From Escherichia phage vB_EcoM_VR7: DNA of 64,000 nucleotides. The position numbers were made by a program, and so were the translations under genes. Where the stretch lies: sequence record NC_014792.1; one strand, written 5' to 3'. The notes beneath the pieces were generated by a model. That model did no database searches and had not been told where the DNA came from. It was given only the letters and a program-made list of their open reading frames with translations. Positions 2,995 through 58,683 of the stretch are shown piece by piece; the first letter of the stretch is position 1; every line of letters begins with the position of its first letter.

Positions 2995-4819
2995 GCGTCG
3001 CATTCATCCAATCTTTGCGCAGCTTCGGTTCTTTACCGAAAAGCATTTCGAACAGTTCTTTCCAGTTGTCAGGTAATTGAACAACTTCGAAAACAGGTTC
3101 GAGCAATACGCGCTTGTACTCGGAATCTTCCAGAGAACCCAGTCCCTTGATATATCTGATGGTATGCTTCGGAAGTTTATCCTTAGCTTCTTCATAATCA
3201 GGGAGAGAATAGAACCATTCTTGTTTATCTTTTAGTTGCGCAATAATAACAGGAGTTTTCACAAAGCGAATACGTCCTTCATGGAACAGCTCCGGCCAGT
3301 TACTGAAAAATGCCAATAACGATGGATAGATACTACCAACGCCATCCACATCCGCATCTGTCATGATAGCGATATTTCGGTAATTCATATTCTCGGCTGG
3401 TTGTCCAATCGTTAATCCAGTAATCGCACACACATCAAAGGCTTCTGCGTTTTTCATAACTTCAACAGCTTTCAGACCCCATGTGTTTTTGAACTTACCG
3501 CGCAACGGATATGCACCTTGCAATTCGCGGTCACGAACCTTGATAAACGGTCCGGTTGCAGAATCCCCTTCGGTTAGGAACAAAGTCGTTTCCAGCTTGT
3601 CATTACCCCATTCGTTGGCCTTGATATGTTTCTGTACCTTGGCCTTTGAAGCTTTCTTATTCGCCTTTGTTTCTGCAGCTTTCTCTGCAGCCAATTTACG
3701 CGCCAATGCAGCTTCGACAATCGGCATAATCAGCGATTCATTTTTCAGAATAGCTTGAGCGATTTTCTTAGCATCAATTTGGATATGATTTCGAATCTCG
3801 CCAGCCGGAGAAGTCAATCGCTCCTTGGTCTGGGAATCAAATCGCATATTGCTCATATCGCGGATGAACATAAGCATGGTGAGGCATTCTTTAACTCGTG
3901 CCTTGGTCACCTCGATGCCTTTATATTTGCGCTTAATTGCTGGCTGAAGGTGTTCACAGATATCATCCATAACACATTCAACGTGGTGCCCACCATTCTT
4001 TGTATGGATGTTGTTAACATAAGTCAGCTGACGGAAACCGTCTGGGCTGGTCGTGAAAGCCATTGATACTGTATCAGTTTCCTGGATAACAACTTCAGTC
4101 CCGAATTGTTTGGAGAACTTCTTGAAGTTGCCATCAACCTTTTTACCATTAAAGGTAAACTGAATATCCGGGTAAACAACCGCAAGAGTCTGCAGACGGT
4201 CCAATGTAATATCCAGATAAATCTGGGACAAACTATTTTCTTCAAAGTGACTAAAGTCCGGAATAAAGATAACAGTTGTGCCTTTACCCTTAGATTTCTT
4301 GGTAGACCAACCTTTGTTTTCCATACCGTTGGAGCAGTTAACAGTAATTTCATTTGCACCATCAGCGGTAATCCCTGTAAACAATACAGAGAAAATATTG
4401 GTCAGAGAAGACCCGACGCCATTCATCCCGCCAGTTTTACGTTCAGCATCATCACCGAAGTTGCCCCCGGCTTTTGGAATAGTCCATGCTGCAACAGGCC
4501 CAGGGATTTGTTCACCGCTTTGGTCGACAACCATTGCTTGTGGAATACCACGGCCATTATCAGAAACTGAAATCTGATTATCTTTAATTTGAACATCAAT
4601 TTTATTGGCAAATTTAAAACTGGTGCGAATTGCTTCATCAACAGAGTTATCGATAATTTCATCAATCAGTTTTACAATACCAGGAACATAGCTTACGGAC
4701 TTATATTCACCAAACAAGAATCGCTCATGCGCTTCATTTGAACTGGAACCAATATACATCCCGCTGCGTTTTTTGATGTGTTCAATATCGCTTAAAACAC
4801 GAATTTCATTCTTAATCAT
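2990..4819 (-). CDS. 39: DNA topoisomerase II large subunit (single continuous 39+60-type ORF)
   Basis: 609 aa; GyrB-like GHKL motifs EIIDNSVDEA, DNGRGIP, GGMNGVGSS; uninterrupted ORF. Confidence 0.9.
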   Translation of the reverse strand: MIKNEIRVLSDIEHIKKRSGMYIGSSSNEAHERFLFGEYKSVSYVPGIVKLIDEIIDNSVDEAIRTSFKFANKIDVQIKDNQISVSDNGRGIPQAMVVDQSGEQIPGPVAAWTIPKAGGNFGDDAERKTGGMNGVGSSLTNIFSVLFTGITADGANEITVNCSNGMENKGWSTKKSKGKGTTVIFIPDFSHFEENSLSQIYLDITLDRLQTLAVVYPDIQFTFNGKKVDGNFKKFSKQFGTEVVIQETDTVSMAFTTSPDGFRQLTYVNNIHTKNGGHHVECVMDDICEHLQPAIKRKYKGIEVTKARVKECLTMLMFIRDMSNMRFDSQTKERLTSPAGEIRNHIQIDAKKIAQAILKNESLIMPIVEAALARKLAAEKAAETKANKKASKAKVQKHIKANEWGNDKLETTLFLTEGDSATGPFIKVRDRELQGAYPLRGKFKNTWGLKAVEVMKNAEAFDVCAITGLTIGQPAENMNYRNIAIMTDADVDGVGSIYPSLLAFFSNWPELFHEGRIRFVKTPVIIAQLKDKQEWFYSLPDYEEAKDKLPKHTIRYIKGLGSLEDSEYKRVLLEPVFEVVQLPDNWKELFEMLFGKEPKLRKDWMNATL

Positions 4820-14831: not shown

Positions 14832-15065
14832 TTAAACAATATCAGTCGGCGTAAACATTGCCTCGTTTTTGGTCTTCCAGTCGGCAGCATCAGTGACCAC
14901 AGTTGAGTAGGCCGCTACCGCCGAAGGGAAAGTCTGATAATGAGCATTAGCAATACGATGCGCATCAGAATAGATTTCAAACGGAACCGAAACCTCAGTA
15001 CCTTTAACTTCTTTACCTACACCAGCTGCATGCGTAAAGGTTTTGATATTAACGAAACCACCCAT
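14832..15065 (-). CDS. soc: small outer capsid protein
   Basis: 77 aa; GFVNIKTF...HYQTFPS...AAYSTV recalled from T4 Soc; late promoter upstream. Confidence 0.85.
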   Translation of the reverse strand: MGGFVNIKTFTHAAGVGKEVKGTEVSVPFEIYSDAHRIANAHYQTFPSAVAAYSTVVTDAADWKTKNEAMFTPTDIV

Positions 15066-15095: not shown

Positions 15096-15103
15096 TATTT
15101 ATA
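15096..15103 (-). promoter_or_regulatory. late promoter TATAAATA for soc
   Basis: exact TATAAATA about 30 nt upstream of soc ATG, AAAGGAG RBS between. Confidence 0.6.
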
Positions 15104-15129: not shown

Positions 15130-15816
15130 TTAAATGCCTCTAAATTCATATATTAAAAGTTTAAGTGCACTAGGGGTTGTTTCGTATTTCCCTTTAAGTG
15201 CTTTAACCACGGCAGTTGCCCCACCGGGTTTACCTAATGAAAGCCAAATCTGATAGATTTCACTTTTCAACGGTTCATGCCAATGGGCAGCGGTTCTTTG
15301 AGCTTTAGATGTGGCTTCTGATACGATTTTATTTCCACCATTTGCGTAAAACTCATTCATTGCTTCTGATTGTCTGGATTTGCGTTCAGGCCTATTTTGA
15401 GCGGTGCTTTGAGCTTCCTTCATTTTGGCTTTGGTTTTTGGTTTGTTTAAACGCAATGTTTGGGCCAACTTCATTTCGTCCGTCCATTCGTATCCTTCAC
15501 CACCCTGTCCACCGGGTAAAATATTAATACAATTTGAACCATGTTTAGAATTTAATAATGATATTATATATCTTTCATGTTCAAACATCATTTCCCGATT
15601 CTGGTGACCTACAAACCAACGAATTTTATATTTGACCCCATATTTTTTATAGATATTCCAAAGTATTTTTCCAGAGCCAGGATATCGGTCTTTATTTGGG
15701 TCTAATACATTGGTCTCATGTTTACCACCATACCAAAAAACGCCTTTCGGCGTTTTAACTTTAATTATATAAGTTCTATAAAATTTTGCCTTAATAGCCA
15801 TGGTCCTGGCGCTCAA
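15130..15816 (-). CDS. putative GIY-YIG homing endonuclease (segF position)
   Basis: 228 aa; YIIKV...FWYGGKHE, EHERYII, NILPGGQGG; basic C-terminal DNA-binding-like region. Confidence 0.5.
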   Translation of the reverse strand: MSARTMAIKAKFYRTYIIKVKTPKGVFWYGGKHETNVLDPNKDRYPGSGKILWNIYKKYGVKYKIRWFVGHQNREMMFEHERYIISLLNSKHGSNCINILPGGQGGEGYEWTDEMKLAQTLRLNKPKTKAKMKEAQSTAQNRPERKSRQSEAMNEFYANGGNKIVSEATSKAQRTAAHWHEPLKSEIYQIWLSLGKPGGATAVVKALKGKYETTPSALKLLIYEFRGI

Positions 15817-16309
15817 AGTTGGCTTTATTTTTGAGATAATAAAGCTTGAATATTTGTTGTGCTGAGCATATTAAGACCAATAGCATATTGAATACAAGAA
15901 AGTGCATAATGTCAATTAGTTCAAATTTAATTTCAAGCTGGTCTTCAGGAGACATTTCTGAAATTGGTTTAGATTGAGCTTCGGTATAACGAGCTTTCCA
16001 TTTTTTCCACACAGCAGACGCGTCTTTCTCACCTTTAGACATTTCACCGAGAGAGGTCAGAAGCTCACGGAATTCGTCATCAATACAATCTTTTTGTTCG
16101 CGCATCCAGGCAACAACATCACCCGCGGTGGACAGTTTATCTGGATGATAGCAATATTCTCGGTCATTAGCCAGACGAACCTGCAATGATTTCTGCATAT
16201 CAAGCATAATCTGCAGCGGGTCATTACTAAAAGCAATAGCTTTAGTATAAGCTTCTTCGGCTTTGTCAACACCAGCAATCAGTTGTGAACATTCATTAAA
16301 ATGTGCCAT
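15791..16309 (-). CDS. 56: dCTP/dUTP pyrophosphatase (MazG-like)
   Basis: 172 aa; MAHFNEC N-terminus and EFRELLTSLGEMS...KWKARY match recalled T4 gp56. Confidence 0.85.
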   Translation of the reverse strand: MAHFNECSQLIAGVDKAEEAYTKAIAFSNDPLQIMLDMQKSLQVRLANDREYCYHPDKLSTAGDVVAWMREQKDCIDDEFRELLTSLGEMSKGEKDASAVWKKWKARYTEAQSKPISEMSPEDQLEIKFELIDIMHFLVFNMLLVLICSAQQIFKLYYLKNKANFERQDHGY

Positions 16310-16391
16310 TATTTTTCCTTATCAATTCATGTTGTTTGTATGTTAATTATATCATATTGAGTTGAAGCATAAATAAAAGAAAGGAGGATGT

Positions 16392-16589
16392 ATGCTAAAA
16401 CTATCTAGTCTAATTCAAGCCATTAAAGGCAGTCGTAAGCGAACGATTTTGGCCCTTTCGATACTCTGTTCAGTTCTTTTATGGAACTTCATTGTCGCCC
16501 CTATTGCATTGGCACATGGTCTTGTGCTTCCAGTCGTTGCCTTCGAATCAGTTGTAGATGTTTCACTGGCATTAATCGGCCTTATATAG
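16392..16589 (+). CDS. small membrane protein (plus strand)
   Basis: 65 aa; strong RBS AAAGGAGGATGTATG; hydrophobic segments. Confidence 0.5.
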   Translation: MLKLSSLIQAIKGSRKRTILALSILCSVLLWNFIVAPIALAHGLVLPVVAFESVVDVSLALIGLI

Positions 16590-16597
16590 GTGGAACT

Positions 16598-16867
16598 ATG
16601 GGAACATTATTCTATCAGATATGGAAATTAACCAGTAAGAAAGACAAGAAGCTTATCATGGGATTTTTAGCTCTTGATATTTTCCTGTGGAACTTACTGG
16701 TTGTACCTATCGCCGCAACACAAGGGGTACACTTACCCCAGGTCACAATGGGGCATATCCATTCCATCATCGGTTTACTTTACCGGAATCCCTTCCTAAA
16801 CTTTTGCGTACTTCGAAAGTCGCATTCTTGCCATCAACCCTTTGGGCACGTTATCAGCCATATATGA
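16598..16867 (+). CDS. small membrane protein, paralog of 16392..16589
   Basis: LALDIFLWNLLVVPIAATQG resembles LALSILCSVLLWNFIVAPIALAHG; 3' end converges on primase; end uncertain. Confidence 0.4.
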   Translation: MGTLFYQIWKLTSKKDKKLIMGFLALDIFLWNLLVVPIAATQGVHLPQVTMGHIHSIIGLLYRNPFLNFCVLRKSHSCHQPFGHVISHI

Positions 16868-17824
16868 TTCGATTTGTTCAGGGGTTGCCCCTTCTGATTT
16901 AACCATCTCATTTATGTCTTTTGTATGCCATGGCGCATTATCCCAGAACATAACGGCTTCACCAGCTTCAACGAGTTTCTTCATACGTTTAATCGTATCA
17001 GGATGTCTTGGCTCGTTGTCCATTACCCATACTCTGGTTTCAGCATAAGGAACCGCTTCCAATGACAATGTACCGCCGGTTATCGCAATGCTGTTAGGGA
17101 TAAACAAACTATCAATCGGACCTTCCATTACCCACACGCGCTTACGCTCATCAATCTTGTCTACCCCGTAGACTTTGGAAGCTTCTGGGTGGGCTTTGAT
17201 GGTGATATATTTTTGTGGTGCATCTTTGCGAAGAGCTCGTCCTTGGAAAGATTCGATTTCTTTTTTGCCGTTGAAGATAGGAATAACCAAGCGTGGTTCA
17301 TTCGTTTCATTCTTATACGTCCCAGGATTAACGGAGTTAACTAATGCAGGCCATTTGTTTGTAAACCATAGCCGGTCCCAAACACCAGCCGGAATACACC
17401 GACTTTTTACATACTTAACTATCGGATGCGCTTCTGGTAAAGTATCGAGTCTTTCACAAAAAGCAAGCTGCTCGATAACCGGAGTTTTTTCTGGCTCTTT
17501 CGGAGTTTCTGTGACTTCAGTACGTTGTCGACCAAAGGCATTCTCCTTGTACTTCTCGACCATATATTCCCGGTGTAAATCTGGCTCAAACTCTTTTATG
17601 TATTTGCTTATATGTGTGGAGTAGTCACAGTTAAAACATTTCACATAAACCGCGCCATCCGCTGGATTGGTATACGCCCAGAATCGAGCCTTATGTGAAT
17701 CCTTTTGGGAGTCCCCGCAAACTTTACATCTACAGTTTGCCTTAAATGTGCTCCCGGTGACTTCTCTATAACGTGGTTGATACGATAAAGCTCTGACCGC
17801 AAATTCTTTATCAATATATGACAT
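16796..17824 (-). CDS. 61: DNA primase
   Basis: 342 aa; zinc ribbon CRCKVCGDS...CFNCDYSTH; TOPRIM-like EGPIDSLF. Confidence 0.9.
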   Translation of the reverse strand: MSYIDKEFAVRALSYQPRYREVTGSTFKANCRCKVCGDSQKDSHKARFWAYTNPADGAVYVKCFNCDYSTHISKYIKEFEPDLHREYMVEKYKENAFGRQRTEVTETPKEPEKTPVIEQLAFCERLDTLPEAHPIVKYVKSRCIPAGVWDRLWFTNKWPALVNSVNPGTYKNETNEPRLVIPIFNGKKEIESFQGRALRKDAPQKYITIKAHPEASKVYGVDKIDERKRVWVMEGPIDSLFIPNSIAITGGTLSLEAVPYAETRVWVMDNEPRHPDTIKRMKKLVEAGEAVMFWDNAPWHTKDINEMVKSEGATPEQIESYMADNVPKGLMARMRLSKYAKV

Positions 17825-17856
17825 AGTTTCCTCATTTCAATGGCCCCGGAGGACCA

Positions 17857-18024
17857 TTATACTGTAGGTTTATCGTCTTTGTTCTTACGCTTTTTTGATG
17901 GGATTTGTTCAGGGCCTTTATTGACAACTGCCCCGGAAGTGGTACCTGTTGCGATATTAGTTGGGTTTCCGCCAGCATCACCAGCAACCATATCTTCATT
18001 GATAAAATCTTTGAATGTTTTCAT
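17857..18024 (-). CDS. small protein with capsid-targeting-like N-terminus
   Basis: about 55 aa, MKTFKDFINED... resembles the MKTYQEFITE capsid targeting sequence; TATAAATA upstream; approximate. Confidence 0.4.
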   Translation of the reverse strand: MKTFKDFINEDMVAGDAGGNPTNIATGTTSGAVVNKGPEQIPSKKRKNKDDKPTV

Positions 18025-24884: not shown

Positions 24885-25028
24885 CTAATTGAAACATTCA
24901 TAACGGGCTTGGAGCCCCAAAAATACCCAACCCAAAATTAAAGTTGGAACCATATGCGGAGTCATTATTGCCCAATAGATTGACATACTAAAAAATGCAA
25001 TCAGTACAATAATTGTAATTATCTTCAT
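24885..25028 (-). CDS. small membrane peptide
   Basis: about 47 aa, MKIITIIVLIAFFSMSIYW...; ATGA overlap with upstream stop; approximate. Confidence 0.3.
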   Translation of the reverse strand: MKIITIIVLIAFFSMSIYWAIMTPHMVPTLILGWVFLGLQARYECFN

Positions 25029-25267
25029 TTGGTTTCCTTGATGATAATTACTTGTGCGTTTGATTTACGTTCAGCAACGAGTGCCCAAATCAATGCAATT
25101 ACCCAACCAATCATCGTCCACCCAAACAGAAGGTTGATGAAAAAGATTCCGACATTGCTTCGGGTGCCACGCAGTAATGCGATAATCCACGGTAGAAAAT
25201 ATGCCAATGCAGCCAAGAATAAAGAACCAGCGCCAAGAACAAAAGTACCCGCAATTATTGTTTCCAT
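25025..25267 (-). CDS. small membrane protein, possibly Imm-like
   Basis: 80 aa, two hydrophobic helices; position just downstream of gp43 as T4 imm. Confidence 0.4.
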   Translation of the reverse strand: METIIAGTFVLGAGSLFLAALAYFLPWIIALLRGTRSNVGIFFINLLFGWTMIGWVIALIWALVAERKSNAQVIIIKETK

Positions 25268-40005: not shown

Positions 40006-40040
40006 AATAAACCCTTACCATTATTAGATAAGGGTATTTA

Positions 40041-58657: not shown

Positions 58658-58683
58658 AATACCCCCTTATATAGGGGTATTTA

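Follow-up and report, generated by a model that had tools for sequence, protein, structure and literature searches.

The stretch of DNA analysed here, referred to below as the window, comprises 64,000 nucleotides (nt) from Escherichia phage vB_EcoM_VR7 (NC_014792.1). Between its gene 56 and its primase gene 61, two small open reading frames, ORF1 and ORF2, follow one another on the plus strand and converge on the primase gene. A preliminary description, made from the letters of the window and a list of its reading frames, had singled them out as the only convincing plus-strand genes. The annotation of a close relative, Escherichia phage vB_EcoM_VR25 (Gaprivervirus, Tevenvirinae; hereafter VR25), agrees with this: the minus strand carries 143 of its first 145 coding sequences (CDSs), and the remaining two, gp031 and gp032, are the homologues of ORF1 and ORF2 and the sole plus-strand genes within about 66 kb. 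The identity of the window to VR25 is put at about 97–99%. The region 16250–16900 is 99.4% identical to VR25 and 87–98% identical to about 30 further Gaprivervirus phages. Over the alignable parts of the first 49 kb, the window and VR25 share 92–98% identity, and the window thus represents an isolate distinct from VR25. We consider it likely that the two ORFs form a two-gene, probably late cassette encoding two diverged members, each of about 65 amino acids (aa), of an uncharacterised inner-membrane family, and that ORF2 is decaying.

The two proteins are clearly related. The hydrophobic cores that the preliminary description had reported as shared are exact, the proteins are 36% identical over 42 aa (BLASTP, E-value = 1e−6), and both belong to the family PHROG 2024: residues 1–65 of ORF1 match positions 1–65 of 65 (E-value = 3.1e−26), and residues 1–61 of ORF2 match positions 1–61 (E-value = 3.3e−25). 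Each of the 13 Gapriverviruses examined has an intact 65-aa ORF1, and ORF1 shares 49% amino-acid identity with its T4 homologue. The residues conserved in the family (in ORF1 numbering, W31, N32, P37, A39, P47 and E/D at 52) are all present in ORF1; ORF2 retains W, N, P, A and P, and the near-universal E/D after the turn is replaced by G in the window as well as in VR25 and VR26. ORF1 and ORF2 are real small membrane-protein genes, already catalogued as hypothetical proteins. Up to residue 59, ORF2 corresponds to VR25 gp032, just as ORF1 corresponds to gp031, and the PHROG 2024 relatives (VR25 gp031/gp032, VR5_029 and others) share with the pair the full-length profile match, the strand, the position, the upstream motif and the conserved residues.

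Conservation in related phages, on which the preliminary description had staked its proposal, is extensive. Searches with tblastn returned 714 phage records for ORF1 and 115 for the canonical form of ORF2, and the family is present in roughly 800 T-even-type records. The matches span Tequatrovirus (T4, T2, T6, RB14), Mosigvirus, Gaprivervirus, Dhakavirus and Kanagawavirus as well as phages of Klebsiella, Citrobacter, Enterobacter, Yersinia and Salmonella. The RB14 member is named RB32ORF030w and noted as similar to RB69ORF029w. True members of the family are 57–69 aa long, a range that includes ORF1, and the 89 aa of ORF2 in the window are owed to one inserted T. Across the family, W and one P are invariant, and N, A and another P nearly so. 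The family is narrow: an exhaustive HMMER search of 1.84 billion cluster representatives with its profile retrieved 12 clusters, including one spurious repeat protein, and none of the 12 contained an annotated distant relative. In 185,579 species genomes of bacteria and archaea, scanned twice, no homologue turned up, prophage-borne or otherwise. One member, P0041 (positions 4001–4210 of a siphovirus-like contig), lies outside the T4-like phages and matches PHROG 2024 with an E-value of 6e−11; genes for a J-like tail tip and for endonuclease VII come before it and a serine recombinase after it, and it has no late-promoter motif upstream.

In every T4-like genome inspected, the gene runs counter to the early genes and borders on the 3′ end of gene 61; this placement holds for the window, VR25, T4, RB14, Ursula, ZX14 and four metagenomic T4-like contigs, with gene 56 or dam on the other flank. 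In HX01 the gene is likewise on the opposite strand, but the HX01 primase is not annotated. The convergent genes share a tail-to-tail 4-nt stop overlap in T4, RB14, Ursula, UPEC01, MN01 and distant metagenomic relatives. T4 itself encodes an intact 66-aa member on the plus strand (17738–17938), flanked by dam and gene 61 and preceded by GATAAATA and an AAGGAGG ribosome-binding site. The T4 RefSeq record NC_000866.4 has no CDS at this position, and a recent PHROG-labelled T4 record annotates one. The pair had been said to occupy roughly the place of T4 dam; it does not replace dam, since T4 carries both dam and an ORF1 homologue. Literature searches on the ORF names, on small or unannotated T4 proteins and on late antisense transcripts of T4 returned nothing on the gene.

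Two subtypes can be distinguished. ORF1 groups with the proteins of T4, RB14 and HX01 (type A), whereas ORF2 represents type B: it shares 72–78% identity with the one copy found in JS98, JS10, Bp7, VR5 and Klebsiella phages (Marfa, for example) and bears a clear resemblance to the protein of ZX14; a single type-B copy is also present in Dhakavirus. Gapriverviruses carry A followed by B, with B next to the primase gene, and type B sits at the ancestral position beside the primase. The A + B tandem is peculiar to part of Gaprivervirus, most phages being single-copy. The two genes had been described as paralogues, which is right as far as homology goes, but ORF2 is nearer to the single copies of other genera than to its neighbour, and a recent local tandem duplication was rejected as the origin of the pair. 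By sequence comparison, ORF1 and ORF2 are two old subtypes.

The signals upstream of ORF1 that had been noted as a strong ribosome-binding site and a late-promoter-like element are both present. AGGAGG precedes the ATG of ORF1, and GGAGG or GGAG also precedes the homologues in T4, RB14, HX01, ZX14 and Marfa. Further upstream, CATAAATA matches the gp55-type consensus TATAAATA at seven of eight bases. In 11 of 12 T4-like representatives, the core NATAAATA begins 19–29 nt ahead of the start codon, against a background chance of about 0.012 per 40-nt window of sequence, and the upstream DNA is otherwise unalignable across the lineages that keep it. In phages that have only type B, the motif reads TATAAATA, AATAAATA or CATAAATA. 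ORF2 has no motif of its own (ATAAATA does not occur between the two ORFs), and its ATG lies 8 nt after the ORF1 stop codon, so that the two genes probably form one co-transcribed operon. A promoter scan found no sigma-70-type promoter for the pair on the plus strand, and such a promoter was dropped as a candidate. Late expression of ORF1–ORF2 from CATAAATA is thus probable as judged from the motif and its conservation.

In the window as a whole, ATAAATA is depleted (8 occurrences versus 21.7 expected in 64 kb), and the one upstream of ORF1 is the single plus-strand occurrence. Five of the others lie shortly upstream of an ATG, three of them before the homologues of soc, 61.1 and e, and a sixth lies 24 nt upstream of the ORF containing rI. 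The longer form (T/A)ATAAATA is found just upstream of start codons at 2987, 15096, 18041, 40035, 51832 and 58678, always on the minus strand; four of these sites, at 15096, 18041, 51832 and 58678, have the soc, 61.1, rI and e (lysozyme) homologues behind them, respectively, which suggests that these four are late promoters within the early region. A hairpin that includes the ribosome-binding site comes after the motif at 58678 (e) and at 40035. The 61.1 site and ORF1 share the same geometry: motif, 6 nt, Shine-Dalgarno sequence, 4 nt, ATG. Compared with T4 late genes served by gp55-type TATAAATA promoters (soc, e), ORF1 thus has seven of the eight motif bases in common, and the other occurrences of the motif in the window are reserved for homologues of late genes; it differs in having C at −13, where T or A is usual, and in lying on the opposite strand within the early region. 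T at −13 is the weakest position of T4-type late promoters: 9 of 50 listed T4 sites have A there, further sites among the 50 carry single deviations, and −13 is poorly conserved in other T4-like phages (PMC2988020, PMC1524935).

A minus-strand site resembling a MotA-type middle promoter stands back to back with the late motif of the plus strand, with an overlap of 2 nt. Sites of the form TGCTTYA-N11-13-TANNNT number 9 in the window versus 1.9 expected, a five-fold enrichment, and a count of 9 was reached in none of 100 shuffles. The site may be the counterpart of the oriA-associated promoter upstream of gene 56 in T4.

Hydropathy and structure prediction give the two proteins the same layout, in agreement with the preliminary description of both as small membrane proteins. 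The hydropathy maximum falls at residues 21–35 in ORF1 and 24–38 in ORF2. AlphaFold2 predicts helices 2–11, 15–41 and 51–64 with a loop at 42–50 for ORF1 (pLDDT 76), and helices 2–11, 14–41 and 51–63 for ORF2 (pLDDT 70.5). In most members the net charge is +2 to +5 on the N-terminal side, and it is −2 to 0 on the C-terminal side. The conserved W31–N32 lies in the middle of the transmembrane helix, followed by P37 and A39; G43 and L46–P47 lie in the turn, and E/D at the start of the last helix, an amphipathic one whose type-B version is too polar to be membrane-spanning. These features suggest a single-pass inner-membrane protein whose N-terminus is cytoplasmic and which has in-plane helices at either membrane face. 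An amphipathic N-terminal helix and basic cluster would be cytoplasmic, the single transmembrane helix would carry the invariant W-N and P and an A-x-x-x-G stretch, and the periplasmic face would present the conserved G-x-x-L-P turn, followed by a roughly 14-residue amphipathic helix that usually starts with E or D. Polar faces of transmembrane helices commonly mediate helix–helix association.

In its present form ORF2 runs from the ATG at 16598 to a TGA at 16865–16867, which confirms its stop, and as read it overlaps the 3′ end of the primase gene by 72 nt. That the two genes overlap had been proposed before; the overlap is, however, due to a single extra T, and normally they meet at their stop codons only. 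The extra T is absent in VR25, VR26, VR20, SP18, UPEC01, P479, MN01 and TH15, and intact relatives read GG-TTAC at this position. Canonical ORF2 is 66 aa long (in VR25, VR26, UPEC01, P479, MN01 and TH15) and ends in ...IIGYFTGIPS. In the window, a 29-residue basic tail takes the place of the last 6 residues and shifts the net charge of the C-terminal side to +3, versus 0 or −1 in the canonical form; AlphaFold2 confidence for the tail is low. The 89-aa form was absent from a collection of 15 billion proteins and sets ORF2 apart from its PHROG 2024 relatives.

Other single-base indels, shared by no relative, occur in the window. In the primase gene, an additional T at 16841–16843 is compensated by the loss of an A at 16848, changing AQ to PK. 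In rIIA (744–850), six +1 homopolymer insertions fall within 110 nt and are in frame overall, and no phage record matches the altered peptide above 78%. Such clustered indels may be either real compensated frameshifts or local sequencing errors, and because other unique homopolymer indels are present in the window, the extra T in ORF2 may be a mutation or a sequencing error.

Elsewhere in the genus, ORF2 has been lost repeatedly. It is intact in VR25, VR26, UPEC01, P479, MN01 and TH15. Codon 2 is TGA in VR20, CJ20 and RZ; deletions affect SP18 (between GTGGAAC repeats), EAWsc9 and CJ20; and in RZ and P8 a homing-endonuclease gene (RZ stretch 2022–2771, P8 stretch 1930–2697) is inserted between ORF1 and the primase gene and destroys ORF2. 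DK-13 matches ORF2 in two pieces across an annotated homing endonuclease and, to judge from this arrangement, probably carries the same insertion as RZ and P8. The likely course of events would be that ORF1 (type A) has been maintained, and ORF2 (type B), the ancestral copy, has become redundant in the genus and is decaying in many sister phages.

The transcript of the pair would head into gene 61. A terminator scan detected a minus-strand hairpin some 60 nt beyond the stop codon of the primase gene, within ORF2. Other type-B genes also have a hairpin in their QGVxLPQ codons, in different pairing registers, and the hairpin in the window may be a terminator or a by-product of the Gly and Pro codons. 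Since the register of these hairpins is not conserved, the idea that a conserved intrinsic terminator separates the two convergent genes was dropped. With no conserved terminator between the pair and the primase gene, the transcript probably continues antisense into gene 61, and late antisense transcription of gene 61 is plausible on the basis of this arrangement. The last ~110 nt of gene 61 also contain a long-range inverted repeat, AACCCCTG...CAGGGGTT, at about 16835–16890, whose counterpart in the T4 stretch examined lies at about 3475–3530. It is common to T4, RB14, ZX14 and Gapriverviruses, and RZ, P8 and Ursula are without it; in HX01 a CCAC/GTGG variant preserves the pairing. The stem is shortened in the window by its own indels. 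Positions of all features are collected in Table 1.

Table 1. Genes, signals and sequence differences at the ORF1–ORF2 locus, with positions in the window
Feature	Position	Strand	Basis and remarks
soc	14832–15065	−	Local gene order
SegF-like homing endonuclease	15130–15816	−	Local gene order
Gene 56, dCTPase	15791–16309	−	Local gene order
MotA-type middle-promoter-like site TGCTTCA-N11-TATAAT	16346–16369	−	Consensus match only; aimed at gene 56
Late-promoter-like motif CATAAATA	16368–16375	+	7/8 bases of gp55-type consensus TATAAATA; C at −13
Shine-Dalgarno sequence AGGAGG of ORF1	16382–16387	+	Read from sequence; 4 nt before ATG
ORF1, type-A PHROG 2024 member, 65 aa	16392–16589	+	100% identical to VR25 gp031 (YP_009209773.1)
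Shine-Dalgarno-like GGTGGA of ORF2	16589–16594	+	Read from sequence; overlaps ORF1 stop codon
ORF2, type-B PHROG 2024 member, 89 aa as read	16598–16867	+	Residues 1–59 canonical, then frameshifted tail
Terminator-like hairpin GGGGTAAGTGTACCCC then TTGTGTTG (GGGGTA-N4-TACCCC, T-rich tail)	16724–16739	−	Terminator scan; inside ORF2
T-run with one extra T (TTT vs TT)	16774–16776	+	Alignment; blastn vs VR25
Canonical TAA of ORF2	16797–16799	+	Out of frame here; overlaps primase stop (CTA on plus strand, 16796–16798)
Primase gene 61, 342 aa	16796–17824	−	ORF list; convergent with ORF1–ORF2

The homologue of the window primase is annotated in VR25 as 'DNA primase, similar to T4 gp61'. On the far side of gene 56, the SegF-like gene encodes a GIY-YIG homing endonuclease 65% identical to T4 SegF; as in T4, its slot is the one that separates gene 56 from soc, and it extends over the 3′ end of gene 56. 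In VR25 this gene is absent, and the slot holds two small soc-like or head genes.

Taken together, these observations argue for the following scenario. After replication starts, RNA polymerase carrying gp55 would initiate at CATAAATA, at about position 16381, and the transcript would carry ORF1 and then ORF2 on the strand opposite to all neighbours, probably running on antisense into gene 61. Several points weigh against it. Position −13 of the promoter motif is C instead of T, and the predicted leader would be only about 11 nt long, beginning at the Shine-Dalgarno sequence itself. Both the late expression and the membrane insertion of family members are predictions. For ORF1, pN/pS within the genus is 0.34, which is not clearly apart from the values of two control frames (0.29 and 0.41), and the evidence that ORF1 is coding therefore comes mainly from conservation between genera. 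For ORF2, the intact copies (seven sequences with intact codons 1–59, the window included) are under strong purifying selection, with pN/pS of 0.09, so that calling this copy redundant is only partly true. The frameshift in ORF2, for its part, could be a sequencing error, given the further unique 1-nt homopolymer indels in the window. Finally, nothing links the family to a given partner or to lysis: scans of the two ORFs and of family members against Pfam, NCBIfam and PADLOC gave nothing significant, the family profile met only noise among Protein Data Bank (PDB) sequences (the best match being a transmembrane helix of the nicotinic acetylcholine receptor, E-value = 0.02), and a Foldseek search of BFVD with the AlphaFold2 model retrieved family members only. 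With no functional lead, the best-supported statement is a structural and regulatory one, namely that the family is a small T-even inner-membrane protein with predicted late expression.

As to function, our tentative proposal, which we think has well under an even chance of being right, is that the protein may bind a membrane partner through its polar transmembrane face and periplasmic helix and thereby modulate a late event at the envelope. Candidate events would be lysis timing, lysis inhibition or late exclusion, and the family protein itself would not form a lethal hole. That it is an overlooked late inner-membrane component of T-even phages, tuning lysis timing, inhibition or exclusion by attaching to a membrane protein of phage or host through the conserved W-N...P...G-x-x-L-P...E surface, is a more specific version that we regard as rather doubtful.

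The function could also be one already known from small phage membrane proteins. Being small, predicted to be late and membrane-embedded, with a conserved polar Asn in the transmembrane helix and a C-terminal helix bearing a narrow acidic or polar stripe, the family might consist of holins or pinholin-like pore formers that oligomerise late in the inner membrane and permeabilise it, and depositors of GenBank and UniProt records have named members 'holin family protein' (EAWsc9) and 'Holin' (OE5505). These labels are unsupported depositor names. Among 15 members, none has a significant Pfam or NCBIfam holin match, the best being a non-significant match to GTA_holin_3TM (E-value = 0.08), seen in two of them. 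Typical holins end in a charged, basic cytoplasmic tail, whereas the C-terminus here is hydrophobic/amphipathic or acidic, with a net charge of −2 to 0 and without a highly charged tail. The neighbours are gene 56 and gene 61, and the lysozyme gene e is about 42 kb away, starting near 58.65 kb. T-even phages already use an unrelated holin, T, together with RI and RIII, and in type B the segment past the first helix is too polar to cross the membrane. Class II holins and pinholins such as S68 of phage 21 are likewise small, late membrane proteins with polar residues inside hydrophobic helices, but they have no sequence relationship to the family, which has one clear transmembrane helix in type B, no basic cytoplasmic C-terminal tail and a location outside the lysis cassette. 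Pore formation is therefore improbable. Somewhat less so, though still unlikely, is a role in late superinfection exclusion or envelope protection, in which the protein would block DNA entry by secondary phages or guard against lysis from without, comparable to what Imm and Sp of T4 do early in infection. The predicted topology would set the conserved motif at the periplasmic face; P0041 belongs to an accessory region that follows a J-like tail-tip gene, a place in which siphoviruses often have exclusion genes; and two diverged subtypes per genome with frequent loss of one would fit genes that are accessory or engaged in an arms race. T4 Imm and RI are also small T-even inner-membrane proteins acting on the envelope, and the window encodes both, but Imm is the product of an early minus-strand gene and possesses two transmembrane helices. 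The family profile shows no similarity to either protein of the same genome, with hhalign probabilities of 0.08% for Imm (25028–25267, minus strand) and 0.26% for RI (51467–51808, minus strand), and homology to them was rejected, both values being below 1%. Neither is there a PADLOC match. Moreover, the known exclusion functions of T4 are early, whereas the gene of this family has only a late-type promoter.

Two further possibilities concern the convergence with the primase gene. If the RNA rather than the protein mattered and the ORFs were incidental, the primase could be shut off by a late transcript that is antisense to gene 61 at its 3′ end: the genes are convergent, their stop codons overlap, no conserved terminator separates them, and both strands of T4 undergo transcription at differing times during infection (PMC2988020). 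What speaks for the protein is its conservation across diverged genera (including the identity to T4 given above and the invariant W, N and P), the retention of ORF length and ribosome-binding site in all lineages, and the low pN/pS of ORF2. An RNA-only role is accordingly very hard to credit, and an antisense effect may arise as a by-product. ORF2 in its 89-aa form, whose C-terminus extends over part of the primase gene, might for its part be a genuine functional variant, seeing that the frame stays open for 29 further codons until the TGA and that the two compensating indels in the nearby primase sequence would suggest real mutations filtered by selection. Yet no other phage record or metagenome contains this form, its tail is predicted with low confidence, the change in C-side charge from 0 to +3 runs contrary to the charge bias of the family, and sister phages have outright inactivated versions of ORF2. 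The other unique homopolymer indels, six of them in that short stretch of rIIA, raise the possibility of a sequencing error as well. We consider a functional 89-aa variant highly unlikely, and the apparent overlap with the primase gene should be read with caution, as a single-base frameshift and possibly a sequencing error.

If the family is an overlooked late inner-membrane component of the kind considered above, the presence of two subtypes together with the repeated loss of one copy in Gapriverviruses would point to an ongoing replacement of one specificity by another. The T4 copy is a cheap and well-defined target for knockout or tagging, and could add a component to late membrane events of infection, lysis control or exclusion among them. 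The comparative value of the locus is modest: a tiny gene has long been kept at one exact spot of the T-even early region, and on its "wrong" strand. Besides this fixed position, the points worth keeping are the decay of the second subtype in the genus, the tracing of the primase overlap to a one-base frameshift, the near-universal late-type promoter that the gene has of its own, and the unannotated copy in T4.

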